Part shown: one piece after another, positions 34,023-51,157 of the stretch | Numbering within the stretch: the stretch's first letter is position 1 | Layout: the number at the start of each line of letters is the position of its first letter | IMG/VR virus record: IMGVR_UViG_3300045988_082110 | Coordinates: 1-54,351 of that record | Source: a virus | Strand: one strand, 5' to 3' | DNA length: 54,351 bases | Made by a program: the position numbers and the translations under genes | The notes under the pieces: generated by a model | Database searches by the model: none | Seen by the model: the letters and a program-made list of their open reading frames with translations, nothing else | Told to the model about the DNA's origin: nothing

Positions 34023-34064
34023 CTGATTATGATTAATTAATTATGGTTTACAAATGTAAAATGT

Positions 34065-34466: not shown

Positions 34467-34838
34467 TTAAAATGTGGTAGGTATGAAAAGATTATTTTTA
34501 GCTAGTTTTATGTTACTCTGTACATTTGTTGTATATCTTTATTATTCCAATACGATTTATTTTGTTAGTTAAACACCTGATTTATAAATAGTTATATATT
34601 TCTTCGTTTTTGATTAGTAACAAAATAGCAACAATGAAGTGTTAATCTTTGCAAAGTAACTAACTTGCCCACAACAAAGATAAGAATTAAATCTTATTCA
34701 CAATTAATTTTCAAAAAGACTTTAACTTAGATTAACATTGTATCATTTCGTATATCTAATGTATATCTATTTCCCTAAAAAATCAATTTCGTTTACATTC
34801 AACACTTTTTAGCATTTGGTGGTTTCAGAAAAAGTTTC

Positions 34839-34846
34839 TATCTTTG
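34839..34846 (+). promoter_or_regulatory. -7 box TATCTTTG with no ORF behind it
   Basis: Perfect TAnnTTTG. The next convincing CDS starts about 455 nt downstream. Confidence 0.5.
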
Positions 34847-34851
34847 CATCG

Positions 34852-34975
34852 TCAATGTTACGGTTGACAGACTAAAGTAGTCCTCCTTTCAAGGCGTAAG
34901 CCTACGAGATATGAACCTCTGAGTCGTTGTCCGTAACCAACACTCGGGGGTTCTTTTTTATTCCCCTGAGTTTGA
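34852..34975 (+). ncRNA. Candidate small structured RNA (about 120 nt)
   Basis: A long helix pairs 34857-34873 with 34922-34937 and encloses a GNRA hairpin, AGGC-GTAA-GCCT (34892-34903). A second hairpin pairs 34942-34950 with 34963-34971. Confidence 0.35.
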
Positions 34976-35301
34976 GACAAGACAAGATGGAAGACTATGG
35001 GCTAGATACATTCCGATTCATCGAGTCTATAAATTGCAAGGAAGAGTCATGGCAAAGCACAGGATTGATTGCAGAAGGTGCGACAAGGACTGAAAACTAT
35101 ATTTCAGAAAGCTGCAAAACCGATTCACGTATAGATTTGTGATAGGTCGATGGAAGGGGCGAATATACGGTCTCCACCCAAGTGAGTCCTCCACCACAAT
35201 GAAAGATTTGTGGGTAAGGGGGATTTTACTTCCCTCAGCTAACGTGCAACCAGTTCCTGTTTAAAGCCTACGGAATATAAATTTAATTAAATATTTTCGT
35301 T

Positions 35302-36048
35302 ATGAAAAATAATAAGAAACAACCTGACGTGTACGTGCCTACGCGCGAAGAGTTCGATGAGTTTTGTGCTTATGGAATGAAGTTGGATGATAAGGAATGG
35401 ATTAATGCCATTTGGAATCTTGTATCAAAAGCAGGATGGAAAAAGAAAAATGGCGAAGCTCCTAATCATTGGCACTCACTTGTGTCTGCGTATAATGGCG
35501 TGTTGATTGCAAAGAGAGGAAGAAAACCTCGTTTACGAGTAGAAAAGAAAGTTCCTCAGCATGAAAAGACAATCATTAATGAGATTGAAGATGAGTTTCC
35601 TGATAATGGTCTTCATTATGTAGCCTATACTGACGGCTCTTGTGATAACTTATCACAAACAAAGGCTGGTGGTGCTGCATACGTCATTCTCAAAGATGGG
35701 GAAATTTTGAAGGTGAAGAATCATGGTCAACTTAATACCTCAAACAACAGAATGGAGTTGTTGGCGATTATTAGTGCTGTGAACGCTTGCCCTGATGGTG
35801 CATACGTGGATATTTATACAGATAGCCAGTATTGTATCTTGGTGCTCTCCAAGTCATATAAGCCAAAGAAGAATCCTGACCTCTATGAGTTGTATAAGAA
35901 ATGCTCTGCTCATTTGGCAGGAGTTCGTTTTCACTGGGTGAAAGGTCACAATGGTGACAAGTACAATGAAATGGTCGATAACTTGGCTTATGGCGCATAT
36001 TGCGAAATCTGTGACCAATATAACATCGAAAAATCGAAAAGACATTAA
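35302..36048 (+). CDS. rnhA: RNase H (type 1) with a roughly 105-aa N-terminal extension
   Basis: YTDGSC, NNRMELLAI, IYTDSQY, KGHNGDKYNEMVDNLA (the D-E-D-D residues of RNase HI). Confidence 0.85.
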   Translation: MKNNKKQPDVYVPTREEFDEFCAYGMKLDDKEWINAIWNLVSKAGWKKKNGEAPNHWHSLVSAYNGVLIAKRGRKPRLRVEKKVPQHEKTIINEIEDEFPDNGLHYVAYTDGSCDNLSQTKAGGAAYVILKDGEILKVKNHGQLNTSNNRMELLAIISAVNACPDGAYVDIYTDSQYCILVLSKSYKPKKNPDLYELYKKCSAHLAGVRFHWVKGHNGDKYNEMVDNLAYGAYCEICDQYNIEKSKRH

Positions 36049-37700: not shown

Positions 37701-38366
37701 ATGATAGGTGCATTAATAGGTGCTGGGCTTGGTCTTGCAAGCAGTATTGCTGGCGGTATAGCTAACCGCAAGGTGAGAAAAAAGCAGGAGCAGATGATTG
37801 CTCAGCAGCAGAGAGAAAATCAGGCATGGTATGATAGAAAGTATAATGAAGACCCTACCAAGCGTGCTGATACGGTTCGATTGCTCACACAGATGCAGGA
37901 GCAGATTAAGAACAGAAACAAGGCAGCTAAGGGTAGACAAGCGGTGATGGGTGGTACGGAAGATTCCACTACTGCGGTAAAGGAGGCGAACAACAAGACT
38001 CTTGCTGATACTACCTCACAGATTGTGGCTGCTAATGATGCCCGAAAGGATAACATTGAGCAGCAGTATATGAACAGAAAGAACCAGTTGCAGAACCAGC
38101 AGATGAGTATTGACGCTGAGAAGGCTGCTGATACTGCCAATGCGGTTGCTGGTGTGGCTGGTACTGCTGCCAATATCGCTGCATCGCTTGATAGTGGTGC
38201 TGGTGGTGCGAAGAAGGCACCGAATATGAATGTGACTCAGGAGCAGTTGAATGGTATCGCTAAGGACTCAAATGATGTTCTTGGCTTGAAGGCTAAGGCT
38301 ACGGCTCTTCCTTCTGAGGGTGACTTGAATAGCCTTGGGGCTAAACTTCAAAAGATTAAAGCATAA
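37701..38366 (+). CDS. Internal virion/DNA-pilot-like protein (Gly-rich hydrophobic N-terminus, Gln-rich coiled coil)
   Basis: MIGALIGAGLGLASSIAGGIANRK followed by Q/N/A-rich helices. This composition resembles ejection or pilot proteins. Confidence 0.5.
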   Translation: MIGALIGAGLGLASSIAGGIANRKVRKKQEQMIAQQQRENQAWYDRKYNEDPTKRADTVRLLTQMQEQIKNRNKAAKGRQAVMGGTEDSTTAVKEANNKTLADTTSQIVAANDARKDNIEQQYMNRKNQLQNQQMSIDAEKAADTANAVAGVAGTAANIAASLDSGAGGAKKAPNMNVTQEQLNGIAKDSNDVLGLKAKATALPSEGDLNSLGAKLQKIKA

Positions 38367-38370
38367 GCCT

Positions 38371-39459
38371 ATGAAAGCATCAGATATGTTACGAAACAAC
38401 AATGGCTTGAAGACAACACAGAGTGTTCTCAATAAGCAGCAGAGTGGGGTGGATGCCGCTCAGAAGGTGGCACAGACTCAGGCTCCAGTCTTCACCCAGC
38501 AGCAACTTGATGCGGCTGGCAAGAAGGTTGACCAGATGAATGCTGCCACTCCTCAGAATGAAACACCTACGATGAAGGCGGCTAGAGAGAAGACTATCGC
38601 TACTCAGCAAGCTATCGCCAATGGTGTAGATGTGAATCAGGGTGCGCCAAGTGATGAGGAGGATAAACCATCTGTCCCTATCGTGAAGAAGGAGGAGCCT
38701 AAACCTCAGCCTAAGCAGTTGTCTTATGCTGATATGTATAAGATGCTGAATCCTGAACTGAATGAGACTGCTGAGCAGAGGGCGAACAGAGAGAAGAAGG
38801 AACGTGCCAAGGCTCGTATCGCTGCTACTGGTGATGGTCTTCGTGCGCTCGCCAATATTTTCTTTGCTACGAATGGTGCCAAGGTGGTACACAATCCTGA
38901 GTCGGATATGACTAAGGCGGTGAATAAACGCAAGGCTTATATGGATGCTCAGAGAGAGAAGAATCGGGCATCATGGCTGGCAGGGTATCAGAGGGCACTC
39001 GCTCTTGATGAGGAAGCTAGGAAGAATAACCTGACTCTCGCTGAGCAGATGAGGTATCACGATAATATGGATAGAGTCAATAGAGCAAAAGCCATGTTAG
39101 ACCAAATGAGGATAGCAAAGCAAGATGAATACAATAAGGGTAAATTAAGTAATCAGGAGTCTGCGAACAAAGAATCTGTTCGACATCATAAAGAGCAGGA
39201 AAGTATTAGTAGGAAGAATGCCAACGCTAATGTGACTAGAGCACAAAAGGCAGGGAAAAATAAAGGTGGTTCTTCTAAAGAAAACTATAATAAAACTCTC
39301 GCTGGTTTAACTACTAATGACCCTAATGGAGTAAGAGCGGTTACTAGGAGTTTGAAACGTGATGGTGTTCCTCAAAATGCACAGACAATAGTAGAGGCTT
39401 ACAGAACACGGAAGGGTTCTTCTTCATCTAATGGTAGAACACTTCATGGAATAAAATAA
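38371..39459 (+). CDS. Lys/Gln-rich hypothetical internal protein (362 aa)
   Basis: The first ATG after the TTG-started track ORF, 4 nt after the upstream stop. Confidence 0.5.
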   Translation: MKASDMLRNNNGLKTTQSVLNKQQSGVDAAQKVAQTQAPVFTQQQLDAAGKKVDQMNAATPQNETPTMKAAREKTIATQQAIANGVDVNQGAPSDEEDKPSVPIVKKEEPKPQPKQLSYADMYKMLNPELNETAEQRANREKKERAKARIAATGDGLRALANIFFATNGAKVVHNPESDMTKAVNKRKAYMDAQREKNRASWLAGYQRALALDEEARKNNLTLAEQMRYHDNMDRVNRAKAMLDQMRIAKQDEYNKGKLSNQESANKESVRHHKEQESISRKNANANVTRAQKAGKNKGGSSKENYNKTLAGLTTNDPNGVRAVTRSLKRDGVPQNAQTIVEAYRTRKGSSSSNGRTLHGIK

Positions 39460-39466
39460 TTATAAT

Positions 39467-42400
39467 ATGGCTACAAGAAAAGAGATTGCACAGAATCAAA
39501 AGATTCTATATGATGATGCAGTTGCAAACAATATGTTTCAGGCTGCTGTACCTAGCTTTAAGGAGTTTCAGAAGCGACTCGAAGGTCAGGGGTATCAGAA
39601 AATGGTGTATGATAACTACAAAAAGCACAATGTGAGAGGAAAGGGATTTAATAATCTCAATGAGTTCCGTGGTGCTTTTGGTGGTTCTTTCTATGCTGAT
39701 GAAAATAAAATTGGTGTATCGGCTGGGGCAGCAGCTATCTCGGCTAGTGCTCAGCAGACAAAGAACAATGCTGGCAGATACAATAGACTGAAACAACGCA
39801 AGCAGAAACAGCAGAAGGATTTCGGTCGTGTGAACTTGGGTACACATCAGACTCCTTATGGTGGTGATGCAAACAATGTGGTGAAGGATGATTTTGCTTA
39901 CAATCCTGAGACTGGCAAGACTGGCGCATACGTTACCTCGGACAATGAGAATGCTTATTCTCTTCCTGAAGCTGAGCAGATGCAAGCTATTCTTGACAAG
40001 CAGAACGATGCCTATCAGGTAGCGGTAGATACTGGCGAGATTCCATCTGCATTTGATGTTCGTGACAAGAATGGTAACTATGACTTGCAGGAGAACATCG
40101 GCAAGAATGGAACCTACCTTACTGAGGAGGGTGCTCAAAAGCAGTTTGACAAGAAACTGGCTGATGCCTATGCTCGAAAGAAGGAGATTGAGGCTCTTAT
40201 CGCTGAGGATAATCGGCAACACGGAAATCCTTTGCTCTCTTATGGTGCTAGTATCGGTGCAAGTAACGGAAGAACTGCTGAGCAGAGTGACTATAGAAAT
40301 AAGTTGGCAACCTCTCTTTCTCTGGTTAAGCAGCAGATTGGTGCGCTGGAAGCGGTGAAACAATATCCTACAAGTAGCTGGGGTGAGGATGCCTTGAAGG
40401 CTCTTGACAATACTGCATTTACTGCAAAAACATGGGATTTCGGTCTTACTGACTTCGCTACTATGGGGCAGATGGAACGTATCAAGACAAAGATGGATAA
40501 CAATATTCCTCTCTCAGGTTCTGATAAGATGCTCTTGAAGAGTAAACTGGGTGCGGATGCTGCTGCGGCTCTTGAAGACGAGAAGATGGGTAACGTCTAT
40601 CGTTGGACGAAGATTGCAGGGCAGAGTCTCCCATTTATGGCTGACTTTTTCTTGACTGGCGGTTATGGTGGTATTACTAAGGGCATCAGTCGTGGAGCCT
40701 TGAAGATTGCTGCTAAGCGTGGCATGGGCAAGGTGAGTGCTGCGGTCTTGAAGAATACTGGTATTGTGATTGGTGATATTATCGGCTCGTATGCGATGGC
40801 TGGAACTGAGCAAGCGTTGAAGACTGGTGCTGACATCATGCAGCGACATCTTGGTAATCTGTATCAGGATGAGAAGGGTGATTATAAGTTTGGTACTTTC
40901 GATGAGAATGGAAATCTTCTGCATGAGGGTGGTGAGTCTATTGGTACTGCTCTCTATAAGGGTATGACCTCTGCTATGGTAGAGAACTATACTGAAAAAC
41001 TCTTCGGTCACAACTATGGTATCAAGAAGGGTGCTGTCAACTTTATGGAGAAACATGGTATGAATGCTTCTGCTGAGTTCTTCAAGAATATCGGCAAGAG
41101 TGGATGGTATACCAATTCCAAGAAGTGGATGGAGAAGTTCGGTATCAATGGTTTCGCTGAGGAAGTTATGGAGGAGGAAATTGGTATTCCTCTTCATGCC
41201 TTGCTGGATGGTGAAGGTAAGGTTAGCGACCTTCTTGATGCTAAGCAGCAACTCGACATCATCGGTGGTATGGCTATCTCGGTCGGTTCTATGTATGCGA
41301 TGGGTGCTGGCTCCCGACCAGTAAAAGGTATCTACAATCGTGCTCAGTATTACCGATTCCGCAACAAGGTGAACGTGGCTGATAGTGATGCTCAGAACCT
41401 TATGGGCGATAACTGGGCAGACATCAAGGATAAGATAGACAACGCAACCAACGAGCAGATGGGTGGCGTGCTGGCTGATATTCTCAGACAGAGAGATACC
41501 ATGACCAAGGAGCAGATTAATGCTGCTGTTAACTATGGTGTCAACCTGATGAAGATGCGTGGCTACAATATTGCCAAGACTGCTGAAATGAATGCCAAGG
41601 AGATAACCAATGAGCCTACAACACCTGAGGAGCAGCATCAGGCAGATATTGACAACGCTTATTCTGAGGGGCATGATGCTGATGATGCAGACAAGCATGA
41701 TATTCAGATTCAGCAGGAAGACCAGATGAAGACTCTTGCAGCAGCATTGGGTATCTCTGAGCAGCAGCTATCTGCCATGAGTGACGAGGAACTGGAATCC
41801 ATGACTGGGCAGGATGATAAACTTGACCAAGCTATCTATGACTACCAGTTGTCTTCTGCCCGATACCAAGGTGTGGTTGATGATGCACAAGACAAGGTTG
41901 ACCTTGCTGCTCATCAGGCAGAGCAGAGAGTGGATATGTACACAGACCAGAGTCGTAGTTCTGTCCGTAACGCTACTATCAAAGCATTAGGTGGCTTGGA
42001 AGACTATGGTGTTTATATTATCAGTGGTAATATTGCTACTCATGATGATGGCTCCATTGATGTAAGCAATAGCGATGGTATGATTCTATACTATGACCCG
42101 ACAACGAATAGTGTAGAACATGCTGATGCGTTGATGTTCGCTGAACTGGGTGAAGAACTCCCTGCTGATGATGTGAAGGCTCAGGCAGTAGCTGATGCAA
42201 AAGAGAATGCTATCAAGGAAGTGGCTGGCATCATTGATGGAACCGTTGAAATTGGCTCCCAGTTCAATGTGACTGATACTGATGGTACTGAACATACCTA
42301 TGAGGTGTTGGCTGACTATGGTGATGGTACTGCTGCTATCTCTATAGATGGTAACGTGGTGGAGAATCCTTATTCGCTTGCAGACTTGCAGCAGATGAAA

Positions 42401-45400
42401 GACTTGGAAGACCAGAAGAGACTGGAAGCTGCCAAGGCTGAGCGTGAGCAGATGGAAAAAGAACGTGCTGCCCAGCAGAATCAGGAGACAGAAGAGACTC
42501 AACCTTCGTTTGACTTCAATCAGATTCTCAATGATAATGGTAACGTGGTGCTCGTTGATGTGCTCGACAAGGATGGTAATACCAAATATCCTGACTCTAG
42601 ATTGTTCCTCATTCGTGATGCTGGTGCCAAGGCTAAGGTAGTTGAGTTGAAGAGTGATGGTACTATTGTTCCTCATGCTGTGAACAAAGAAGATGTGGCA
42701 ACTATCTCTTCTATGTCGCTCGATGAATACAAACAAGCTATGCCTGAATCCTCAACAATAGAGGATAATAGTGGAGAAGAATCTGATGAGGATTCTCAGT
42801 TGGCAAATCTCGGTTTGCCTAAAGGTAGCGAGATATGGATGAGTGGCGATGGATTCGGAAGACCAAAGGAAAACACTCTATCAAAAGTTGTTGGTATTGA
42901 TGAGCAGGGCAGTATAATCCTTGAAGATAAGGATGGTAAAAAGTGGTCTGCATCATTTGATTATATCAACAACCATCGTGAGCTTCCACCTTTGGATGAG
43001 AATACCAATATCGTTAATGAGGAGAATAATCAATCTGAATCAAATGCTGAGGAGAACACTCCTGCTCCTGAGCAGACTCCTGCTATTACTCTTGAAGATG
43101 GAACCATTGTTCCTATGCTGGAGGATGGCAATCCTGACTTCTCGAAGCTGACTGCCGCACAGACTGCTGAGTTGTATGATACTCAGTTCGGTGAGGATGC
43201 AGATAGTATCGTATCTGGATATGTGTCTGACGCAAAGAAGGCACTCGACAAGGCTAGCAACATGACCGTGAAAGGTAAGACTTTCGTGGAACAGAAGGCT
43301 GCCAAGGATGCCAAGGAGAAGGCTATTGCTGATGCTCAGGCGGTTTATGATTCTGCTATCGCTATTCGTGATGCTTACAACGAGCGACAACTGGCTAAGG
43401 TGGAAGATACTGCTGAGGGTAGAAAGGAACTCATTGAGAAGGCAAGAAGAAAGTTCGCTCGCTTGAAGAGTGCTGTTAAGGATGATGCTGAGGCTGTATC
43501 ACAACTCTACCGAGAAACTATCGGTTCTCTCCTTCATCGTCTGTATGATAGTACTGGTATTGACGTGACTGATACAACTCCGCTTACTGCTGAGGAGTAT
43601 GTGGCTAGCAACCTCGGTGCTCACTCTCTCAACTTAGAGGGAACAGAGACAAGCAAGGGTGTTAAGCAGGAGACTGGATTGAGCAGAGAAGACTTTGCCA
43701 AGACTCAGTTGCTCGCTGCTGATGGCAAGGGAACTACTATTGATGCGCTCGTTCACAGCTTGTGGGAGAATCGTCCATCCAACCTTGAATCACTCGACAC
43801 TCAGGATATTCGTAACGCACTTATCGGTGTACTCAATAGCGGTTTTAAGGCATCGGAAGCAAGGAATTTTGTTGAAAATATTCGCATTGCTCAGGCAGAG
43901 AACATACTTGAAGAGCAGAAACGTGCTCAGGAGAATGCAGCCTATGCTGAGCAGCACAAGGCTGAGCCAGAGGCCGAGTTGAAGGCGAAGTCGGATGAAA
44001 AGGCTGAGTTGAAGGCGAAGTCTGAGGCGAAGTTGGATAATGAATCGTCTAATGAATCTAATGATTTGTCTAATGAAACGGATAATGAGAAGATAAATGA
44101 CAATATAAATGATAACATAAATGTTCCTGAGGATGCTACTGATGAGAATCCTTTAGGCGCACAGCGTGATGAATCTGACCTTCCTTTCTCTGCTAAGGAG
44201 AATGGTATGCAGCAGACAACTGCCGTGCGTGCTGCTGACGTGGAGAAGAATAAGGTGAATGATATGAAGGTTGTTGACAATATCGTAGGGCAGAAGACTC
44301 GCAAGGCTTTCGAGAGACTGGCTAAGATGATGGGTGCTAACATTCAATGGCAGTACTCTGACAAGTTGGGCAACGGCTGGATTCAGGAGACCAAGGATGC
44401 CGATGGCAACGTTCATCGTACCATCTTCATCACTCTTGACTCTTCTATCACGGAAGGTGCTCAATTTATCTTCGGTCACGAAATGACCCACCAAATCAAG
44501 AACCTGAACCCTGCTGCATACAATGAGTTGACTCAGCTTGTGCTTGATACCTATGGCTCTGATGCCTTCGACAAGGCGGTGGATGAGACCATGCAGAGAT
44601 ATTCTGATGCTGGATTCTCTGGACGTGCTAGAGATTACTATGCTGAGGAGGTTGTTGCTGATTCGGTAGGTGAAATGATTCGTGACTTGAACCTTGCTCA
44701 CACTCTAGCCATGAAGATGTCTCATCCTCTGCTCGCTGCTATCCATGAGATATTGCAGAAGATTAAGTTGGCATTCTTTGGTACTGAGTATAGCGATGTG
44801 ACCAAGAACATCATCCGCTCTATCGAACAAGCCTACGTGAAGACTGCCAATGGTCAGGTAACGAATTCTGAAACTGGCGAAGATGTTGCCTTCTCTCTCC
44901 GTCAGAAACCTGAACCTAAGAAGAAGGGTGTCGGCTACAAGGTGTTCGTGCTAAAGGATGGCAAACTCTATCCACCAATGGTAGCGAACCCTGATGGCGC
45001 TGCTACTCCAGTTGGTGTATGGCTCGATGCTGATGCGGCTCCTATTGCAGGAGAAAGCAAGACTGGCAGACCTCAGGTTAAGCAGGGCGGCAAGGGAACA
45101 CAAGGCGGTAGCGGTAAGCTAGCCTATAGACCAGGCTGGCATCTTGGTGTAGTGCCTTATGCTATTCAGTTCAATCGCAAGGATGCTGAGGGAAACAAGA
45201 CTCTCTTCCCTAAGAACTTCGTCTTCGCTGAGGTGGAGTATGCTGCTGATGTTGATTATCAGGAGGAAGCTCGCCAAGAGGGTATCAATCCATCGGGCAA
45301 GTATCAGCATTCATTGGCTGGTTTGAAACATCTGCCTACTGATGGATATTATATGTATCGTACCAACCCGAACCCTGAGACTGACCCTTGGGTGATTACT

Positions 45401-48400
45401 GGTGCGATGAAGGTGAACCGTATCTTGACCAGAGCAGAGCAAGCGGAACTTGTGAAGAATGCCGGACGTGAACCTCAGCAGATTCAGGAGGGCGATATTG
45501 TTACTGATGATGTTGTGAACAGCATCAATCAGGAGATAGCTGCTGCTCCTAAGTTCTCGTTGAAGGTGTATCATGGTAGCGGTGCTGACTTCACAGAGTT
45601 TGACTTCGACCACATGGGCGAGGGTGCTGGCTCCCAAGCATTCGGTTGGGGTGGCTATGTTACCTCTTCAAAGAAGATAGGAAAGGACTATGCTCGGTTA
45701 GGTAAGGAGACTGGCGGTGACTATCAGTATATGGGTGACACGAAACTTACCTCAGAACAAGCAAGGGTTCTTGCTGTTTTTGTAGGTTTACCTGCATACA
45801 AGGAATATTCATCTATGAAGGAAGGAGTTGGTGCTTATATTAAGTCTTTGCGTACCTTGGAACAGAAGGGTGGTTTTATGGCAAAACATGCTGGAGAACG
45901 TATCAAGGTACTGGAGAGTGTTCTCCCTAAACTTGACAAAGTGAGCAGATATGATTTTGCGCACAAGTCTCGTAATCTCTATGAGGTTGATATACCTGAG
46001 GATAATGGCAGCAACTATATTGAGTTCTACGAAGATGCTACCCCTGAGTTTAAAGAACAGATTAAGAGTGTGTTGGCAAATGGTCTCCCTTCTGAGTTGA
46101 AGAAAATGCCTGAGTACAAAGAGGCTGAACGGAAATTCTATGAGGAGAACGGAACAGATGAATCGTTTGAGAAGTCTCTTATTGATGATGCTCTATTTGA
46201 GTTGGAACGTAGAAAAAGTAATGGCGATGCTTATAATGCGTTGTCTGTTGCTGTTGGTGATAAACTGGCAAGCAAAATTCTTTCTTCGCTCGGATATACA
46301 GGTATCAAGTACCCTGCTGGCACCATAATGGGTGGCGCTGAGGAAAATGATACCAACTATGTTATCTTTAAGCCTGAGGATATGAAAATCACAGAGCATA
46401 CCAAGTTCTCTCTCCGTTTGAAGTCTGCTATTGAGGAGACTGAAACCAATCCATCTGACGCACAGAAAGAGAGTGGCAACTACAAGAAGGGACACATCAA
46501 GTTCGGTGGCTACGATTACACTATAGAAAATCCGAAGGGTTCTACTCGCTCAGGCAAGGATGCCGATGGGAAAGAATGGAAAGTTATCATGCACGATACC
46601 TATGGTTATATCCGTGGTAAGTTTGGCAAGGATGGTGACCATTTGGATATGTTCATCAATGACAAAGCAGACCTTGATAATTGGAATGGTGATGTGTTTG
46701 TCGTTGACCAAGTGAATCCTGATGGCTCGTTTGATGAGCATAAGGTAATGTATGGCTATGACTCCATGGATGATGCCAAAAAGGCTTATCTCGCCAACTA
46801 TAGCGATGGTTGGCAAGGTCTTGGAAATATTACTGGAGTAAGCAAGGATGAGTTCGACAAGTGGCTTGATACGAGCAATCGTAAGCTAAAGCCATTTGCA
46901 GACTATGCTAAAGTAAAGTTCTCGTTGAAGGATATAAAGCCAGTAGGTGTTGGTGCTTTCGGAAATATATACAACCAGTTCCGTGGCAATGCCAAGGCTG
47001 CAATCGAGTTCTTGAAGAAGGTTCGTGGTGGAGAAGCTGTCGGTGCTCTTCATCACAAGGATATTGGTGATATTGATTTGGTTTGGGGCAAAGAAGGAAC
47101 TGGACATAGTGATGGCTATGGTCTTTCTAAACTTGTGAAGTATCATCCTGAGGTTCTTGATAATTTGCAGGAGATTCTGAATGATATGCGTGTAGTTTCA
47201 AGCAGTAAGAATCGTGTAAACTTGGAAAGTGAAACCCATAAGGCTGGTGTTCGTCTTACTTGGGATGGAGAAAGAAAATCTTGGTTGTTGACTGCATTTA
47301 AAAAGGAAACTTCGGCAAGCGACAAGAGGACAGACACTGCCGCTACTTCGTTGGAAGGTGACACCGCTCTCTCCCAAACCGAAGGTTCTGCTGCAAAGAT
47401 AGACAATTCTTCTGAAACTGCCAAGGAAAATGGCGAAAAAGTTGATGTTGAGGCTCCAAAAACTTTCGATGAGTTCCTGAATCATCCTTCTTTGAAGTTC
47501 TCTATCAAGAATGAGCAGCAGAGAAAAGCGGCTGAGGATGCTTATATCGTGGGGAATACCCGATTCTCCTTGCGCTATGACCAGTTTGAGCATGACCTGA
47601 ACCAGTGGAAGAAGGATAATAATCTGCCTAAGGATGCACAGAGGCCAACCATCCCACATCGCAATGCTGGAGAGAGTGCCGTTGACTTCCTGAGGAGAGT
47701 AGACGAGTACCGCAAACAGATGGCTCTGTGGAAGACTGCTCCAACCTACGAGCAGCATCTTTTGAGCGATGATACTGCCCTTGGAGAGTTCAACCGAGAG
47801 TTGCAGCGTGGTTCTGTGCTGAAACGTATCGCCTTCCAAGATAGTATGCTGGCTATCCGCAAGGCTCAGGAAGCTATCATGAAGGAAGTGGGTGTTGACC
47901 GCCTGAACATGGCTGAGGATGCCTATACTGCCGAGAACCGCAGTCATGGCAAGGGAAAGAACGAGTTTGAGGAGTACAACAATGAGTTCTTGCAGCCATT
48001 GAGAAAGGCTTATCATCAGATGAAGAAGATACTGGGTGACAGCTATGATAATGTCCGTATCTACATGATGGCTAAGCATGGTTTGGAACGTGATGCTCAG
48101 ATGGCATTCAAGAAGTCTTTGGAAGCTGATTATGAGGACGTGGCTCAGAGAAGTGCGGCATACAAGGCTTACAAGGGCGATATGAACCGTATTATCAATG
48201 ATAGCGATTTGGAGTTTGGAAGAGTGGATTTCACTACTTGGAGACAGAGAGATAACGCTCTCAGAACGAAATACTCTCCTTCCTATATGGACTATCGTTA
48301 TGATGAGAATGGTATTGCCTACGATTATTCAGGTTTGTCTGCTCTCTATGACGGCTCAGACTTTGAGGAAGCTGCCTACAAACTGGTAAAGGATATTGAG

Positions 48401-51157
48401 GATAAGTATGTAACCGAGACTCACAACCTCTGGGATGCAACGAATGCGGCAACCAAGAAGATTCTCCGTGATGGCTACAAGGCTGGAATGATGAGCAAAG
48501 ATACCTATCAGTATGTGCGTGATATGTATAGCCATTATATTCCTCTCCGTGGCTGGGATGGCACTACTGCCGACCAAGTATGGGACTATATTGGTGGCGG
48601 CAAGGGTGCTTTCAATCAAACCTTGAAGAAGGCACACGGACGTACCTCTATCGCTGATGACCCTATCGCATACATCGAGAATATGGCAGAGAGTGGAATC
48701 CTGCTGAACAACAAGAACTGGGTGAAGCAACACCTGATGCTCTTGGCTCAGAATCATCCAACCTCTCTTCTTACCCTGAGCAAGGCTTGGTACGTGAAGA
48801 GTGTGGATGATAATGGCAACGAAGAGTGGATTCCTGCTACACCTCAGATTACTTCTCAGATGGATAGCAATCAGGTGAAGGCTGCCATTGATGCTTTCGA
48901 GAAGAAGATGGAGAAGATGGCTCAGACTGGCGATGCTACCCAAAAGAGAGACGGACTGAATATAGCCTATCCTCAGACTCATAGCGAGGAGAGAGAGCAT
49001 GAGGTAAGAGTGATGAAGGATGGCGAGGAGTACGTTATCTACGTGAATGGTGACCCTCAGTTGGCTCAGGCGATGAACAATACTAGAGCACACCGAGTAA
49101 GAGAGATTCAGAGCGGCAAACTTGATAGGGCTGCTGCTTGGTTGGGCAGAAAGATGGCTGCTGCCTATACCAGTCTTTCACCTCTCTTCATCCCTTCCAA
49201 CTACTTCCGAGACCTGACCATGACGCTGGCATCTACCGCTATTCGTGAGGATGGCAGATACAACTATCTGCTCAGAAAGAATCTGGCTACCTCTTGGAAT
49301 CTCGGTTTCATGCTGAGAGACTATCAGAACGGCAAGTTGAGAGATAAGGTAAACAACGGAAACGCTACACCAAAGGAACAGATGTTCTATGACTTCATGA
49401 TGAATGGTGGCGAAACTGGCTTTGTCTCTTCGCTTGATGTGGAAGACTTGAAGAAGAAATTCAAGAATGACTTGAAGGATTTGGATAGATGGAAGGCGAA
49501 CCCAGTAAAGGTAGGGCATACCATCATGGATAGTATCGAGTTCCTGAACAGAATGATTGAGGATAGTAACCGATTTGCGGTTTACATGACCTCTATTCAG
49601 TATGGACGTTCCATTGATGAGGCGGTGAATGATGCCAAGGACGTGACCCTGAATTTCAACCGAAAGGGTACAGGCGAATATGGCTGGCAGATGATTAGAA
49701 ATCTCTATCTCTTCATCAACCCAGCGGTACAGAGTTTGCAGACATTGGGTGCGCTTGCCAAACATCATCCTTTCAAGTTTACGGCTGTTACTGCATCGTG
49801 GTTGGCGAGTGGCGTGCTGGTTCCTATCGTTAACGCTGCTCTGATGAGTATGTTGGGTGGTGATGATGATAATAAGGATAAGTACTGGCAGTTCACAAAG
49901 TGGGATAGACGAAACAACCTGATTATGTGGGTTCCTTTCACTCATGAGTATGTGAAGATTCCGCTTGCTCAGGAGTTCCGTGCCTTTTATGGAATAGGTG
50001 ATATGATTGCATCCAAGATGATGGGTGGCGAGTTGGCTGAGGAGAGTTGGAGTCAGTATGCAGAAGACTTGCTCGGTCAGGTAGTGGATATGCTTCCGCT
50101 TGACCCTACTGGCTATGATGGCAATATTGCTGTCAGTCTGATGCCGAATGCTATTCGTCCAGTCTTTGAGTTGGCTTTCAATATTGACTTCACTGGTAAG
50201 CCATTATTCAAGGACACAGAGTATAACAAGTATGACCCTAACTTCACCAAGGCATACGTGGGAACTCCTGATTGGTTGGTGCGTGCTTCCAAAATGGTTA
50301 ACTCAATCGGAAACGACTATCCTGATGTGCAGCAGAATAGCATAGATGCTTTCGGTGACCCAAGATACAATCTGAATAACCCTGCCGTGGTTGACCATGT
50401 ATTGTCTTCTTATCTCGGTGGTGCTTACACCATGGGCAGTCAGGTGCTCGGTTTGCTTACCAAGTCACTCAATGACCCGAAGGAAATCAAGGTGGCTGAT
50501 ATTCCATTATTCAGCAAGTTCGTCAGCAATCCTGATGATAGACCGGTTACTAAGAAACAAGGTGATGAGTTCTGGGATATGAAGGAGAATCACGACCGAG
50601 CAGCCAATACCCTGAGCAAGTTGAAGAAACAAGCTAAGGTGGATGGCGATTACTCTATGCTGGAGCGGTTCTACGGCTCTGAGGAGTATAAGCAGTACAA
50701 GCAGGATGATGCGAAGGTGAAGAAGTATGAGGAAGACAAGAAGAAGGAACGTGCTGAGGAGAGTGGGGAGGAGTATAGACCTCACAAGTTGAATGCCGAG
50801 GATATTTACAAGGCTCATGCTACTCCGAAGGATGATTTCGAGGACTTGAAGCTGAAACAACTCTACACCAAATTGAACGGATTCAAGACTTCCTATGACC
50901 TCTTGGTTGATACGGCTCCTAGTCAGAGCGATGGCTACTACAACACCAACAAGGCTGCTATTGATGCCATTGACGAGATTTCTCTTGATAAGCAGGAAAT
51001 ATCCGAGTTAAAGAAAGGTTTCTTGGATGATGGCAAGGATGCCTACAACGCTGAGGACATGAAACAGATTCGTGAACTTAGAAAGAAGATTCTTTCCGTG
51101 CTGGAAAAGGCTAACAAGGTAGTTGTGGCTAACCAGAAGGCGAAGGCTGAGAAGTAA
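39467..51157 (+). CDS. Giant polyvalent virion protein (3,896 aa)
   Basis: A single uninterrupted ORF of 11,691 nt containing several enzyme-like modules (see the sub-features below) and a C-terminal hydrophobic helix (about 49780-49860). Confidence 0.85.
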   Translation: MATRKEIAQNQKILYDDAVANNMFQAAVPSFKEFQKRLEGQGYQKMVYDNYKKHNVRGKGFNNLNEFRGAFGGSFYADENKIGVSAGAAAISASAQQTKNNAGRYNRLKQRKQKQQKDFGRVNLGTHQTPYGGDANNVVKDDFAYNPETGKTGAYVTSDNENAYSLPEAEQMQAILDKQNDAYQVAVDTGEIPSAFDVRDKNGNYDLQENIGKNGTYLTEEGAQKQFDKKLADAYARKKEIEALIAEDNRQHGNPLLSYGASIGASNGRTAEQSDYRNKLATSLSLVKQQIGALEAVKQYPTSSWGEDALKALDNTAFTAKTWDFGLTDFATMGQMERIKTKMDNNIPLSGSDKMLLKSKLGADAAAALEDEKMGNVYRWTKIAGQSLPFMADFFLTGGYGGITKGISRGALKIAAKRGMGKVSAAVLKNTGIVIGDIIGSYAMAGTEQALKTGADIMQRHLGNLYQDEKGDYKFGTFDENGNLLHEGGESIGTALYKGMTSAMVENYTEKLFGHNYGIKKGAVNFMEKHGMNASAEFFKNIGKSGWYTNSKKWMEKFGINGFAEEVMEEEIGIPLHALLDGEGKVSDLLDAKQQLDIIGGMAISVGSMYAMGAGSRPVKGIYNRAQYYRFRNKVNVADSDAQNLMGDNWADIKDKIDNATNEQMGGVLADILRQRDTMTKEQINAAVNYGVNLMKMRGYNIAKTAEMNAKEITNEPTTPEEQHQADIDNAYSEGHDADDADKHDIQIQQEDQMKTLAAALGISEQQLSAMSDEELESMTGQDDKLDQAIYDYQLSSARYQGVVDDAQDKVDLAAHQAEQRVDMYTDQSRSSVRNATIKALGGLEDYGVYIISGNIATHDDGSIDVSNSDGMILYYDPTTNSVEHADALMFAELGEELPADDVKAQAVADAKENAIKEVAGIIDGTVEIGSQFNVTDTDGTEHTYEVLADYGDGTAAISIDGNVVENPYSLADLQQMKDLEDQKRLEAAKAEREQMEKERAAQQNQETEETQPSFDFNQILNDNGNVVLVDVLDKDGNTKYPDSRLFLIRDAGAKAKVVELKSDGTIVPHAVNKEDVATISSMSLDEYKQAMPESSTIEDNSGEESDEDSQLANLGLPKGSEIWMSGDGFGRPKENTLSKVVGIDEQGSIILEDKDGKKWSASFDYINNHRELPPLDENTNIVNEENNQSESNAEENTPAPEQTPAITLEDGTIVPMLEDGNPDFSKLTAAQTAELYDTQFGEDADSIVSGYVSDAKKALDKASNMTVKGKTFVEQKAAKDAKEKAIADAQAVYDSAIAIRDAYNERQLAKVEDTAEGRKELIEKARRKFARLKSAVKDDAEAVSQLYRETIGSLLHRLYDSTGIDVTDTTPLTAEEYVASNLGAHSLNLEGTETSKGVKQETGLSREDFAKTQLLAADGKGTTIDALVHSLWENRPSNLESLDTQDIRNALIGVLNSGFKASEARNFVENIRIAQAENILEEQKRAQENAAYAEQHKAEPEAELKAKSDEKAELKAKSEAKLDNESSNESNDLSNETDNEKINDNINDNINVPEDATDENPLGAQRDESDLPFSAKENGMQQTTAVRAADVEKNKVNDMKVVDNIVGQKTRKAFERLAKMMGANIQWQYSDKLGNGWIQETKDADGNVHRTIFITLDSSITEGAQFIFGHEMTHQIKNLNPAAYNELTQLVLDTYGSDAFDKAVDETMQRYSDAGFSGRARDYYAEEVVADSVGEMIRDLNLAHTLAMKMSHPLLAAIHEILQKIKLAFFGTEYSDVTKNIIRSIEQAYVKTANGQVTNSETGEDVAFSLRQKPEPKKKGVGYKVFVLKDGKLYPPMVANPDGAATPVGVWLDADAAPIAGESKTGRPQVKQGGKGTQGGSGKLAYRPGWHLGVVPYAIQFNRKDAEGNKTLFPKNFVFAEVEYAADVDYQEEARQEGINPSGKYQHSLAGLKHLPTDGYYMYRTNPNPETDPWVITGAMKVNRILTRAEQAELVKNAGREPQQIQEGDIVTDDVVNSINQEIAAAPKFSLKVYHGSGADFTEFDFDHMGEGAGSQAFGWGGYVTSSKKIGKDYARLGKETGGDYQYMGDTKLTSEQARVLAVFVGLPAYKEYSSMKEGVGAYIKSLRTLEQKGGFMAKHAGERIKVLESVLPKLDKVSRYDFAHKSRNLYEVDIPEDNGSNYIEFYEDATPEFKEQIKSVLANGLPSELKKMPEYKEAERKFYEENGTDESFEKSLIDDALFELERRKSNGDAYNALSVAVGDKLASKILSSLGYTGIKYPAGTIMGGAEENDTNYVIFKPEDMKITEHTKFSLRLKSAIEETETNPSDAQKESGNYKKGHIKFGGYDYTIENPKGSTRSGKDADGKEWKVIMHDTYGYIRGKFGKDGDHLDMFINDKADLDNWNGDVFVVDQVNPDGSFDEHKVMYGYDSMDDAKKAYLANYSDGWQGLGNITGVSKDEFDKWLDTSNRKLKPFADYAKVKFSLKDIKPVGVGAFGNIYNQFRGNAKAAIEFLKKVRGGEAVGALHHKDIGDIDLVWGKEGTGHSDGYGLSKLVKYHPEVLDNLQEILNDMRVVSSSKNRVNLESETHKAGVRLTWDGERKSWLLTAFKKETSASDKRTDTAATSLEGDTALSQTEGSAAKIDNSSETAKENGEKVDVEAPKTFDEFLNHPSLKFSIKNEQQRKAAEDAYIVGNTRFSLRYDQFEHDLNQWKKDNNLPKDAQRPTIPHRNAGESAVDFLRRVDEYRKQMALWKTAPTYEQHLLSDDTALGEFNRELQRGSVLKRIAFQDSMLAIRKAQEAIMKEVGVDRLNMAEDAYTAENRSHGKGKNEFEEYNNEFLQPLRKAYHQMKKILGDSYDNVRIYMMAKHGLERDAQMAFKKSLEADYEDVAQRSAAYKAYKGDMNRIINDSDLEFGRVDFTTWRQRDNALRTKYSPSYMDYRYDENGIAYDYSGLSALYDGSDFEEAAYKLVKDIEDKYVTETHNLWDATNAATKKILRDGYKAGMMSKDTYQYVRDMYSHYIPLRGWDGTTADQVWDYIGGGKGAFNQTLKKAHGRTSIADDPIAYIENMAESGILLNNKNWVKQHLMLLAQNHPTSLLTLSKAWYVKSVDDNGNEEWIPATPQITSQMDSNQVKAAIDAFEKKMEKMAQTGDATQKRDGLNIAYPQTHSEEREHEVRVMKDGEEYVIYVNGDPQLAQAMNNTRAHRVREIQSGKLDRAAAWLGRKMAAAYTSLSPLFIPSNYFRDLTMTLASTAIREDGRYNYLLRKNLATSWNLGFMLRDYQNGKLRDKVNNGNATPKEQMFYDFMMNGGETGFVSSLDVEDLKKKFKNDLKDLDRWKANPVKVGHTIMDSIEFLNRMIEDSNRFAVYMTSIQYGRSIDEAVNDAKDVTLNFNRKGTGEYGWQMIRNLYLFINPAVQSLQTLGALAKHHPFKFTAVTASWLASGVLVPIVNAALMSMLGGDDDNKDKYWQFTKWDRRNNLIMWVPFTHEYVKIPLAQEFRAFYGIGDMIASKMMGGELAEESWSQYAEDLLGQVVDMLPLDPTGYDGNIAVSLMPNAIRPVFELAFNIDFTGKPLFKDTEYNKYDPNFTKAYVGTPDWLVRASKMVNSIGNDYPDVQQNSIDAFGDPRYNLNNPAVVDHVLSSYLGGAYTMGSQVLGLLTKSLNDPKEIKVADIPLFSKFVSNPDDRPVTKKQGDEFWDMKENHDRAANTLSKLKKQAKVDGDYSMLERFYGSEEYKQYKQDDAKVKKYEEDKKKERAEESGEEYRPHKLNAEDIYKAHATPKDDFEDLKLKQLYTKLNGFKTSYDLLVDTAPSQSDGYYNTNKAAIDAIDEISLDKQEISELKKGFLDDGKDAYNAEDMKQIRELRKKILSVLEKANKVVVANQKAKAEK
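44264..44836 (+). other. Zincin-like metallopeptidase module in the giant ORF
   Basis: FIFGHEMTHQIKNL (HEMTH at 44477-44491), with downstream AEEVVADSVGE. Confidence 0.6.
45554..46396 (+). other. ADP-ribosyltransferase-like (H-Y-E class) module in the giant ORF
   Basis: KVYHGSGADFTEFDFDHMGEGAGSQAFGWGGYVTSS, then NLYEVDIPED. This resembles the HGS ... G.G.Y ... E pattern of PARP/DT-type ARTs. Confidence 0.4.
46406..46906 (+). other. Family I inorganic-pyrophosphatase-like module in the giant ORF
   Basis: YTIENPKGS...TYGYIRGKFGKDGDHLDMFI...DEHKVMYGY parallels E. coli PPase [20 protein letters not shown]. Confidence 0.55.
46919..47326 (+). other. Possible barnase/EndoU-type nuclease module in the giant ORF
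   Basis: DIDLVWGKEGTGHSDGYGLSKLVKYHPEV ... WLLTAFKKE. The assignment is from memory of polyvalent-protein nuclease domains and is low certainty. Confidence 0.3.

Follow-up and report, generated by a model that had tools for sequence, protein, structure and literature searches.

The window analysed here is the whole 54,351-nt stretch of viral DNA. It carries a giant ORF (3,896 aa; taken from the ORF list and its translation), which is a phage polyvalent protein in a T7 gp16-like ejection-protein slot. Its product matches the Pfam families InPase, PBECR1, ART-PolyVal (weakly) and LPD38, as well as a DarB-like family and phrog_14770 in PHROGs. The gene directly upstream encodes a T7 gp14-family protein (Pfam T7_gp14, E = 4.5e-06, 27.1 bits with a cut-off of 27 bits), which places the giant ORF in an ejection-protein cluster, and the surrounding structural module is podovirus-like, with an SU10-type capsid protein and adaptor. 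No sequence similarity between gp16 itself and the giant ORF was found. The window also encodes a RecE-like exonuclease. The features are as follows.

37701..38366, + strand: T7 gp14 internal-virion-protein family gene, upstream of the giant ORF
39467..51157, + strand: giant ORF, phage polyvalent protein with an effector array
39467..44182, + strand: N-terminal conserved region, aa 1-1572, no motif copies, weak LPD14 match only
44183..44197, + strand: junction copy 0, P-F-S-A-K, directly before M1, variant without basic residue at -1
44198..44887, + strand: M1, predicted gluzincin-like metallopeptidase, aa 1578-1807
44888..44902, + strand: junction copy 1, A-F-S-L-R, M1/M2 junction, without basic residue at -1
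44903..45550, + strand: M2, aa 1813-2028, very conserved domain of unknown function (phrog_30118)
45551..45565, + strand: junction copy 2, K-F-S-L-K, pLDDT <50
45566..46402, + strand: M3, aa 2034-2312, ART-PolyVal/DUF3990-like ADP-ribosyltransferase (weak assignment)
46403..46417, + strand: junction copy 3, K-F-S-L-R, linker pLDDT <50 up to F
46418..46915, + strand: M4, InPase domain, aa 2318-2483 (Pfam InPase E = 1.1e-50, aa 2331-2467)
46916..46930, + strand: junction copy 4, K-F-S-L-K, pLDDT <50
46931..47494, + strand: M5, PBECR1 predicted RNase, aa 2489-2676 (Pfam E = 1.5e-09, aa 2527-2615)
47495..47509, + strand: junction copy 5, K-F-S-I-K, pLDDT <50
47510..47560, + strand: 17-aa remnant between copies 5 and 6 (module clustering, m29 vs m11)
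47561..47575, + strand: junction copy 6, R-F-S-L-R, last copy, opens the C-terminal region
47576..51154, + strand: C-terminal conserved region, aa 2704-3896 (Pfam LPD38; phrog_14770)

The giant ORF contains five copies of the strict motif [KR]FS[LI][KR] and two looser ones. All seven are found where the first-pass annotation had placed them, at F1574 (nt 44186), F1809 (44891), F2030 (45554), F2314 (46406), F2485 (46919), F2678 (47498) and F2700 (47564), and the spacing of 171-284 aa that it gave for the first six copies is reproduced (235, 221, 284, 171 and 193 aa, then 22 aa). The strict pattern, which it had used for the whole set, fits five of the seven copies, since VAFSLR has no basic residue at position -1, and LPFSAK, also without it, has Ala at +2. 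The observed count was reached in none of 2,000 shuffles of the giant protein, with 0.01 expected vs 5 observed copies for the strict pattern, 0.12 vs 6 for FS[LI][KR], and 0.21 vs 7 for FS[LIA][KR]. The N-terminal 1,573 aa and the C-terminal 1,193 aa are free of copies, in agreement with the claimed absence outside the array. As for the background check that had been suggested, the window's other stop-to-stop segments (100 aa or longer, 20,546 aa in total) likewise contain none. The claim that the motif marks every module boundary is thus true of the effector array and not of the long terminal regions; in relatives, some inter-motif units are multi-domain.

The junction consensus is [DGN]-[TPVI]-[KR]-[FY]-S-[LI]-[KR]-[DE]. 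In the AlphaFold model, domains folded with confidence are separated by linkers of pLDDT <50, which contain five of the seven copies in full; each of the other two extends across the beginning of the domain that follows. Copy 0 (pLDDT ~31) is conserved, as LPFSA[KR], in 48 contigs of related phages, and copy 1, at the ordered N-edge of M2, has the form V[SA]FSLR in relatives. One tail upstream of copy 2 precedes 6-7 different modules in relatives, and copy 6 is conserved there as NT[KR]FSLRYD, ~1,190 aa from the C-terminus.

The N-terminal region, probably a packaging or ejection part, shows 25% identity with the N-terminus of Bacteroides phage BKO1-TP3 gp55. The C-terminal region contains one strongly hydrophobic segment at aa ~3437-3465 (hydropathy scan) and shares 31% identity with the C-terminal ends of BKO1-TP3 gp55 and BF1-TP2 gp68. 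Between them, M2 retains 70-77% identity across distant polyvalent proteins and has no match in Pfam or NCBIfam, and the weak assignment of M3 reflects an ART-PolyVal score of 25.5 bits, below the 31.2-bit cut-off. The 17-aa remnant is the product of an internal deletion: it fuses the head of a module whose family members measure 226-230 aa in relatives with an ...IVGNT tail, which in relatives precedes the last junction. DNA methylases and other effectors are found among the array modules of relatives.

Module M1 is predicted from its sequence to be a gluzincin-like zinc-protease domain. The embedded HExxH motif noted earlier is indeed present as HEMTH at aa 1671-1675 (nt 44477-44491), and an E-x-x-x-D-x-x-G element (E1728, D1732 and G1735 within EEVVADSVG) follows 53 residues past GHExxH, both being invariant in homologues down to 20% identity. 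Moreover, GHExxH, Y, Y, E, D and G are invariant across 22 diverse homologues, and HExxH is intact in 152 of the 154 homologues spanning the site. In profile comparison, an M13 peptidase (9eyg_A) matched weakly (E = 0.079), with HExxH and GE..AD..G both in register. M1 has no match in Pfam (including MPTase-PolyVal), NCBIfam or PHROGs; fold searches, which gave nothing below E = 0.6 in PDB and weak SprT-like matches only in BFVD, leave the zincin fold unconfirmed. None of the cultured phages in the collection searched carries M1.

The motif is conserved in homologous giant proteins. Clustering at 50% identity gave 96 giant representatives that have an M1-like domain, and these contain 214 strict copies vs 5.6 expected. 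Of the copies, 212 are located downstream of M1, with a single copy in 103,672 aa upstream, and the last copy typically lies 1,190-1,500 aa from the C-terminus. At the same time, 38 of the 96 proteins have no strict copy, which counts against processing by M1, and no alternative recurrent motif was found in these 38. Ten cultured-phage proteins have homologous InPase modules and lack M1, and each contains no more than 0-1 copies, attributable to chance. Eight of the ten, among them BKO1-TP3 gp55, BS-TP4 gp3, BF1-TP2 gp68 and Atu_ph08 gp21, are giants (2,180-5,553 aa) without motif arrays. Where a protein begins with M2 or InPase, the motif lacks its basic and aromatic part. All lineages retain [SR]-[IL]-R at the N-edge of M2, including cases in which M2 opens the protein. 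Also counting against a role of M1, proteins in which no M1 is detectable (e.g. P0118, P0078 and P0082) have a motif-like element, D-[IV]-R-[FY]-[SR]-[IL]-R, ahead of M2; at this junction it belongs at least in part to M2 itself or has some other reader.

The copies coincide with the borders of exchanged modules. As the first-pass annotation had it, they stand at module starts: alignments to relatives begin exactly 4 aa after F and end 1-2 aa before F, and BLAST module alignments run from q1 to q-end between motifs. The 30 upstream and 32 downstream context clusters form 52 combinations, one upstream module being followed by up to 9-11 different downstream modules. Among 77 close relatives, phages sharing 87-99% identity over the C-terminal region, 67 module architectures, ~30 module families and 89 junction types were counted, and every junction has the motif. 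Similarity between relatives ends within ~4 codons of the motif; in particular, shared nucleotide identity ends at +5 from the F codon in 500 of 1,158 pairs, and at +12 to +14 in 262. The position after F is occupied by Ser in 100% of the 89 junction types and of 199 distant copies, R or Q appearing there in outlying motif forms.

The best-supported reading, which we propose with a probability of about 0.45, is that the giant ORF product is a polyprotein of MARTX-like design and that M1 cuts it at the junction motifs. It would be a virion-packaged ejection protein; a related LPD38 giant protein, phi24B gp47, was found packaged in the virion by mass spectrometry. The conserved N- and C-terminal parts of the giant ORF product would flank a strain-variable array of anti-host effector modules, and the junctions would be short exposed linkers acting as processing sites, at which M1, always heading the array, would cut. 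By analogy with thermolysin/M13-type gluzincins, the scissile bond would probably lie just before the aromatic residue (between K and F in K-F-S-L-K); such a cut would fall at a tryptic site, so that the semi-tryptic mapping suggested earlier would be blind to it. Cutting would free M2, the ADP-ribosyltransferase-like module, InPase and the PBECR RNase as separate proteins, and likewise DNA methylases and other modules in relatives, with the release possibly occurring inside the capsid or after injection. What suggests processing is that the copies are in linkers and are confined to the array downstream of M1, that M1 is flanked on both sides by conserved variant copies (LPFSAK and V[SA]FSLR), and that the M1-less cultured-phage giants have no arrays, although the co-occurrence of M1 and the array is confounded by shared ancestry. 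Polyprotein proteases typically have their own cut sites on both flanks. Zincin autoprocessing of polyvalent proteins was independently predicted by Iyer et al. 2017 (PMC5512222); counting against processing here, other zincin-bearing polyvalent proteins, such as N4 vRNAP, ArdC and TraC1, are delivered unprocessed according to the same paper.

Among the other explanations, it is very improbable that the conserved feature is a DNA site (a recombination hotspot or cassette-exchange microhomology) with the peptide as its mere translation. The breakpoints of shared nucleotide identity do fall within the 15-nt motif, a RecE-like exonuclease is encoded in the window, and there is a nucleotide consensus, AAG TTC TCN YTG AAG, with TTC in 19 of 22 motif Phe codons, TCN in 24 of 25 Ser codons and CGN in 16 of 16 Arg codons. 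However, the TCN and CGN biases are expected from common descent and purifying selection on Ser and Arg, only ~8 contiguous nucleotides are fixed, fewer than homologous recombination or any known site-specific system requires, and a basic residue is maintained at both ends although interchanging K and R takes two base changes. Moreover, the third codon base of the fully conserved Ser, the central nucleotide of the site, carries 0.03 bits of information content, and seven codons are in use at the Leu/Ile/Val position; thus the constraint acts on the peptide rather than DNA. The peptide, in turn, could be a structural junction element, either a short amphipathic beta-strand or 'cap' at the start of each cassette or an insulator of adjacent domains in folding or tail threading, having no cleavage or binding role, which we consider unlikely. 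The hydrophobic/polar alternation in [IVP]-[KR]-[FY]-S-[LI]-[KR] is that of a beta-strand, the S-L-R part before M2 is predicted to form a beta-bridge at the ordered edge, and it is kept in all M2 proteins, at N-termini as GLGSIR. The shared first beta-strand that the first-pass annotation had offered as an alternative applies in part to M2 only, given its N-edge conserved in every lineage, and is disfavoured for most copies: these have pLDDT <50 and no assigned strand, the Pfam InPase and PBECR1 models begin 17-42 aa past the motif, and the downstream modules have unrelated folds. The same modules, besides, are motif-free in proteins without M1.

The APIM (AlkB homologue 2 PCNA-interacting motif) consensus [KR]-[FYW]-[LIVAST]-[LIVA]-[KR] is also fitted by [KR]-[FY]-S-[LI]-[KR]. 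We see a small chance that the copies are APIM-like sliding-clamp-binding linear motifs and not cut sites, tethering effectors to the host beta-clamp or replisome or, as an array, sequestering clamps, in which case host replication would be blocked. RFSLK, an exact variant of the motif, bound the bacterial beta-clamp in vitro with KD below 50 uM, stopped E. coli growth when overexpressed and lowered mutation frequency (PMC7261172). Disordered linkers are a typical location of short linear motifs, and the motif-like element before M2 persists without M1. On the other hand, Ser is invariant after F, in a position where APIM tolerates L, I, V and A, and a binding motif need not mark every junction and nowhere else: 1 of 214 copies is upstream of M1, although long disordered acidic stretches are present there. 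The motif is lost in stand-alone modules and M1-less giants, a five-residue resemblance could be coincidence, and we know of no natural bacterial or phage APIM. Also doubtful is the reading of the copies as cleavage sites of a different protease (from the host, or a phage protease in the procapsid), with M1 having its target elsewhere, e.g. among host proteins. In T4 and the phiKZ/SPN3US group, prohead proteases do cut ejection proteins packaged in the head, at short consensus motifs. The M2-leading element without M1 and the 38 motif-free M1 proteins would agree with this, and Iyer et al. allow zincin domains as effectors themselves (PMC5512222); it is opposed by the variant copies hugging both ends of M1, by the M1-less cultured-phage giants without arrays, and by the window ORFs searched, in which no prohead or other protease was detected.

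Processing of the array by M1 would have parallels in several known systems. In MARTX toxins of Vibrio and related bacteria, conserved translocation-implicated ends flank a strain-variable effector array exchanged by recombination, and an internal protease adjoining the array cuts unstructured linkers at a minimal consensus, freeing effectors in the target cytosol. The giant protein likewise has conserved ends, a swappable effector array and an adjoining protease, here a candidate with putative cleavage. In MARTX toxins, the array has its protease at the C-terminal end, a cysteine protease (CPD) activated by InsP6 and cleaving after Leu, while the candidate here is a zincin at the N-terminal end. 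The two systems have no sequence homology, and here phage ejection would deliver the protein, with a bacterium as the target. Polyproteins cut by picornavirus 3C (between Q and G) and potyvirus NIa have a short conserved peptide at every junction and an embedded protease flanked by its own, often suboptimal, sites, which resembles the junctional peptide and the candidate protease between variant copies; the differences are that those are RNA-virus replication and structural proteins and chymotrypsin-like proteases. The literature searched contains no description of anything similar in effector arrays of tailed phages.

Prohead proteases (T4 gp21, cutting L/I-x-E, and those of phiKZ/SPN3US, cutting S/A/G-x-E) also trim head-packaged, injected proteins at a short consensus motif. 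The prohead protease of SPN3US is named in PMC10052503. Such trimming removes targeting propeptides and is done by a separate protease, whereas the sites proposed here divide effector modules from one another, with the candidate protease built into its own substrate. APIM has the identical five-residue pattern, RFSLK being among the beta-clamp-binding APIM peptides tested by Nedal et al. 2020 (PMC7261172), but it is a eukaryotic binding motif, studied in bacteria as a synthetic or overexpressed peptide; here the third-position Ser is invariant and the motif strictly junctional. The location of the giant ORF directly after a gp14-family gene recalls the T7 gp14/gp15/gp16 ejectosome, the ORF being 3-4 times larger than gp16 because of the inserted effector array, and the LPD38 C-terminal region is shared with phi24B gp47. 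The polyvalent proteins of phages and conjugative elements described by Iyer, Burroughs, Anand, de Souza and Aravind in 2017 (PMC5512222) likewise combine ART-PolyVal, InPase, PBECR and LPD38 on one phage polypeptide, with an embedded HExxH domain proposed to release domains. The text of that paper does not contain the words 'linker' or 'boundar...', and an inter-domain consensus site is absent from its passages considered here; relative to these, it is new that a junction motif is defined, that this motif coincides exactly with the borders of the cassettes, and that it varies on a population scale.

The giant ORF (39467-51157, + strand, 3,896 aa) belongs to the polyvalent proteins as defined by Iyer et al. 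2017 (PMC5512222). These are encoded by phages, plasmids or conjugative elements and contain at least two distinct conflict or effector domains, among them family-specific ones (LPDs, ART-PolyVal, PBECR and InPase); the giant ORF is multi-domain and phage-encoded, and its match in PHROGs is a DarB-like family. Its units, bounded by a recurrent short motif, and its Pfam domains are listed below.

Motif-bounded units and Pfam domains of the giant ORF (+ strand, amino acid positions)
aa 1578-1807: unit M1, the HExxH module (HEMTH at aa 1671-1675)
aa 1813-2028: unit M2, very conserved
aa 2034-2312: unit, ART-like module
aa 2032-2133: domain, ART-PolyVal (weak match)
aa 2318-2483: unit, InPase
aa 2331-2467: domain, InPase (171 bits, above the cut-off)
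aa 2489-2676: unit, PBECR1
aa 2527-2615: domain, PBECR1 (39 bits, above the cut-off)
After the PBECR1 unit: 17-aa remnant, then the C-terminal region, motif-bounded
aa 3471-3681: domain, LPD38 (82 bits, above the cut-off)

M2 (window positions 44903-45550) has no Pfam or NCBIfam family, its sole family match being phrog_30118 (function not assigned). It is rich in near-invariant Gly, Pro and Trp residues, and its identity among otherwise unrelated polyvalent proteins (70-77%) is the highest of all modules. In this clade it always comes next after M1, while elsewhere it is found at the head of proteins of about 900 aa.

The motif is genuine, far from random and general, and it coincides exactly with the boundaries between exchangeable effector cassettes throughout a large clade of phages known from uncultured sequence. 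All seven copies reported by the first-pass annotation were located, both as residues (F1574, F1809, F2030, F2314, F2485, F2678 and F2700) and in the nucleotide sequence, and a short conserved site is present at each of the seven junctions of the window array. The strict form [KR]FS[LI][KR], under which they had been grouped, holds for the last five of them, while VAFSLR (F1809) and LPFSAK (F1574) are variants without the basic residue at position -1. In 2,000 shuffles of the protein the strict pattern is expected 0.01 times (5 observed), and two looser patterns 0.12 and 0.21 times (6 and 7 observed, respectively); none of the shuffles attained the observed count for any of the three patterns. 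An unbiased count of 5-mers in a reduced alphabet returned the same element, the most repeated one in the giant ORF being basic, aromatic, small-hydroxyl, aliphatic, basic. The claimed confinement to the effector-rich segment also holds, with no copies in the N-terminal 1,573 aa and C-terminal 1,193 aa of the protein. All other stop-to-stop segments of the window reaching 100 aa or more, 20,546 aa in total, are likewise free of it.

Alignment of the giant protein with its relatives shows that the motif is kept at module borders there too. Among 120 homologues of the central segment, BLAST alignments of window modules typically span the module from its first to its last residue, beginning 4 aa past the F and stopping 1-2 aa short of the next F. 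Clustering of the 25 residues on each side of every copy distinguished 30 types of upstream context and 32 of downstream context, which pair in 52 combinations, a single upstream tail being seen before seven different modules and another before nine. For example, DAPKFSLK is followed by VYHG or by DIKP, and the tail in EHTKFSLR-LKSA recurs in EHTKFSLK-TYHG and EHEKFSVK-SNVD. In three homologues analyzed with Pfam each recognised domain, including C5 DNA methylase, LPD13, PBECR3/5 and MuF_C, is preceded by one copy.

Two related loci deserve separate mention. At positions 10001-17068 of L001, a Prevotella pectinovora chromosome (GCA_037333775.1), a truncated polyvalent fragment lies amid housekeeping genes (typA/bipA, rpsO, OMP genes). 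It is 1,812 aa long, begins within M1 and contains six motif copies, and a 539-aa MuF_C protein comes after it; the fragment adjoins a Gp49/HTH toxin-antitoxin-like pair, is present on 10 contigs, and may be a domesticated or decaying remnant. In L003, a related contig (positions 1-12718), the giant gene is divided into three ORFs of 556, 1,751 and 1,934 aa overlapping by 4 and 10 nt; the splits do not coincide with motif positions and are either frameshifts or assembly errors. The hosts of the clade are probably Prevotella and other Bacteroidales, since homologues are found in Prevotella assemblies.

A scan of IMG/VR with the C-terminal region retrieved 80 contigs, 87-99% identical in this region, of which 76 had enough of the gene to be analyzed, making 77 genes with the window. 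Splitting these at the motif yields about 30 module families in 67 distinct architectures. The module order is conserved (M1, M2, ART, ..., methylase, ART), and within it cassettes are present, absent or replaced; all 89 distinct junction types have the motif. The window array is among the shortest of the 77, lacking the C5 DNA methylase and several cassettes common to most relatives, and at 47510-47560 an internal deletion has left the 17-aa remnant of a lost module. Among 1,158 pairs sharing the upstream module and differing in the downstream one, 500 lose nucleotide identity at position +5 relative to the F codon and another 262 lose it at +12 to +14; these breakpoints are therefore inside the motif or at its edge.

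The nucleotide consensus of the motif is AAG TTC TCN YTG AAG. At the third position of the Ser codon the information content is 0.03 bits, and seven codons are used in the Leu/Ile/Val position, hence selection acts on amino acids. In the window, L001 and L003, Ser is encoded by TCN in 24 of 25 copies, compared to about 58% in the rest of the genes, and Arg in or next to the motif by CGN in 16 of 16 cases, compared to about 56%. This codon bias is what copies of common descent kept by purifying selection would show, and suggests that they share an origin; the approximately eight fixed nucleotides could favour junction-precise illegitimate recombination.

Beyond the close relatives, M1 was used as the query of a full HMMER search of 1.84 billion representatives, which identified 211 proteins, nearly all 2,000-6,200 aa long. 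The 96 representatives of at least 2,000 aa contain 214 strict copies, with 5.6 expected; 212 of these are downstream of M1 and one is upstream, in 103,672 aa, the last copy usually being 1,190-1,500 aa from the C-terminus. Some M1 domains are just 30-36% identical to that of the window, yet their proteins have multi-copy arrays (nine copies in P0151, eight in P0244, six each in P0235 and P0200). A strict copy is absent from 38 of the 96, and no replacement recurrent 5-mer was seen in these motif-less M1 proteins. The consensus is [DGN]-[TPVI]-[KR]-[FY]-S-[LI]-[KR]-[DE], with Ser in 100% of the 89 junction types and 199 distant copies. The motif flavour (F or Y, K or R) is uniform within a protein (p <= 0.01), an effect confounded by ancestry and of little weight. 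A word-indexed homologue search using M1 by itself was uninformative, with 10 close fragments as its yield, and megablast of the giant ORF against cultured phages produced no match. A DNA-pattern scan of bacterial genomes for AAGTTCTCNYTGAAGGAY yielded, among at least 120 loci listed, none with two or more copies per ORF, the listed matches being isolated chance occurrences in unrelated taxa.

In the collections of cultured phages and plasmids M1 is absent, the one weak match being an uncultured fragment. Ten cultured-phage proteins have a homologous InPase without M1; they show 0-1 chance copies each, no array, and no motif at the InPase borders. Eight of them are giants of 2,180-5,553 aa: gp55 of BKO1-TP3, gp3 of BS-TP4 and gp68 of BF1-TP2 (Bacteroides phages), gp21 and gp22 of Sinorhizobium phage PBC5, gp21 of Agrobacterium phage Atu_ph08, a protein of Vibrio phage douglas, and gp30 (partial) of Ochrobactrum phage POI1126. 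The C-terminal region of the window protein is common to BKO1-TP3 gp55 and BF1-TP2 gp68, and its N-terminal region is also found in gp55. The association between M1 and the motif is nevertheless confounded by common ancestry. At a protein N-terminus M2 reads MEYNEGLGSIR..., without the basic and aromatic part of the motif. M1 is not detectable in proteins such as P0118, P0078, P0082, P0083 and P0097, yet D-[IV]-R-[FY]-[SR]-[IL]-R precedes their internal M2; at that junction the element is either in part a feature of M2 itself or has a reader different from M1. Speculatively, the specificity of M1 might have arisen on the N-terminal edge of its constant neighbour M2, the site then spreading with new cassettes.

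M1 has no match in Pfam, NCBIfam or PHROGs. It is always at the head of the array, between conserved variant copies LPFSA[KR] and V[SA]FSLR. Invariant in 22 homologues, down to 20% identity, are G-H-E-x-x-H, two Tyr and E-x-x-x-D-x-x-G (E1728, D1732 and G1735 in the window), and 152 of the 154 homologues with a match across this site retain an intact HExxH. The secondary structure predicted by AlphaFold2 consists of helices, a three-strand sheet (strands at model residues 65-99) and then the helix bearing HEMTH (residues 112-121). A marginal match of the M1 profile among PDB sequences is to an M13 peptidase (E = 0.079), aligning viGHEmtH and GEtlADyGG; the GE..AD..G stretch holds the third zinc ligand in M13, and the pair HExxH and ExxxD is the signature of gluzincins of the thermolysin/neprilysin type. 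With the HExxH helix after a sheet and a downstream Glu, M1 is predicted to be a gluzincin-type zinc metallopeptidase. As gluzincins of this type cleave on the amino side of hydrophobic residues, the likeliest scissile bond would be the one between [KR] and [FY].

Two AlphaFold2 models were built (aa 1560-2040 and 2020-2760). In these models the motif sites are predicted to be exposed or unstructured: copies at F1574, F2030, F2485, F2678 and F2700 lie wholly in segments with pLDDT below 50 amid better-predicted domains, while those at F1809 (before M2) and F2314 (before InPase) straddle the start of an ordered region. Foldseek searches of both models against PDB gave nothing significant (none below E = 0.6 for the M1 query, a two-domain model averaging pLDDT 70), which is probably due to the presence of several domains per model and to moderate model confidence; against BFVD the same M1 query matched other polyvalent proteins and, weakly, SprT-like ones (E = 0.3-0.5).

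The genomic context is that of a tailed phage with terminase, portal and endolysin genes, and further features are as follows.

Features of the window outside the giant gene
6708-9409: SU10-type major capsid protein and adaptor
24564-25166, strand opposite to the giant ORF: MazG-like pyrophosphatase
26473-27231, strand opposite to the giant ORF: DNA methyltransferase
29907-30830, strand opposite to the giant ORF: RecE-like exonuclease
32830-33690, strand opposite to the giant ORF: Ant anti-repressor
35302-36048, + strand: RNase H
37701-38366, upstream of the giant gene: T7 gp14-family internal virion protein
Between the gp14-like gene and the giant ORF (37701-39459 region): 374-aa ORF without family match

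The capsid and adaptor genes, the gp14-family gene and the 374-aa ORF indicate a podovirus-like virion with an ejectosome cluster. Being preceded by the gp14-family gene in the internal-core cluster, the giant ORF occupies a gp16-like ejection-protein slot; no match to the gp16 family was found for the whole ORF in Pfam, PHROGs and NCBIfam, or for its N- and C-terminal parts in Pfam and NCBIfam. A related LPD38 giant protein, gp47 of phi24B, is packaged in the virion, as found by mass spectrometry.

The accessory gene set spans 24564-36048. Within it ARAGORN calls a tRNA at 32193-32271 (- strand) of undetermined identity with a four-base anticodon, tatg, which may be either a spurious call or a tRNA resembling frameshift suppressors. 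Long antisense ORFs (182-394 aa) inside the giant gene (40514-41698, 44153-44701, 47198-48079, 48356-49093 and 49178-49945, all on the - strand) have no family matches and were set aside as spurious; they probably arise from the purine-rich, GC-skewed composition of the coding strand.

The best reading is that the motif provides cleavage sites for M1 specifically, to which we assign a probability of roughly 0.45; that it is a cleavage site in general, whatever the protease, is predicted with slightly better than even odds. The giant ORF would then be a self-processing, MARTX-like effector polyprotein, cut by an uncatalogued gluzincin-like domain at junction peptides such as EIAAAPKFSLKVYHGS. 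A more speculative twist is that a cut between K and F would leave an N-terminal Phe or Tyr on every effector; these residues are bacterial N-degrons, so that the effectors would have a built-in short lifetime. Autoproteolysis of the F-S bond by an N-to-O acyl shift (cf. Nup98 and the HFS of PIDD) was rejected, since the modules upstream share no relationship and the site itself is in a disordered segment, leaving no common fold to strain the bond.

The junction peptides could instead be natural ligands of the sliding clamp, of the type of the AlkB homologue 2 PCNA-interacting motif (APIM). The APIM consensus is [KR]-[FYW]-[LIVAST]-[LIVA]-[KR], and five of the seven window copies fit it exactly. 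Moreover, RFSLK is a tested APIM variant: the peptide binds the bacterial beta-clamp with KD below 50 uM, and its overexpression stops growth of E. coli and lowers the mutation frequency (PMC7261172). However, APIM tolerates hydrophobic residues in position 3, where the junction motif has an invariant Ser (89 junction types and 199 distant copies), and the outlying forms carry R or Q there, outside the APIM consensus. Given also that the motif is strictly junctional and disappears when modules stand alone, we consider clamp binding improbable. Even less likely is its extension, in which an injected multivalent array, or processed effectors each with a clamp-binding tag, dock on the host beta-clamp and either enrich methylases, nucleases and ADP-ribosyltransferases at DNA or deprive the host replisome of clamps.

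Processing of polyvalent proteins by zincins is a published concept (PMC5512222); the literature searched here yielded no description of the junction site, of the protease family or of the cassette structure at population level. Few weapons of phages and conjugative elements are as large or as poorly understood as polyvalent proteins, and their cutting into working parts has been a conjecture since 2017, which a junction peptide of about eight residues and a candidate protease now make simple to address by experiment. As an annotation rule, splitting at [KR][FY]S[LI][KR] delimits effector cassettes across hundreds of genomes of uncultured gut phages, many of the cassettes being unknowns like M2, and a hypervariable effector locus that takes 67 architectures among 77 near-identical phages is useful for studies of phage-host arms races in Prevotella and other Bacteroidales. 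If processing is confirmed, the pair of site and protease could become a tool, and the giant protein would be for bacterial viruses what MARTX toxins are for bacteria, and would match viral polyproteins in design.
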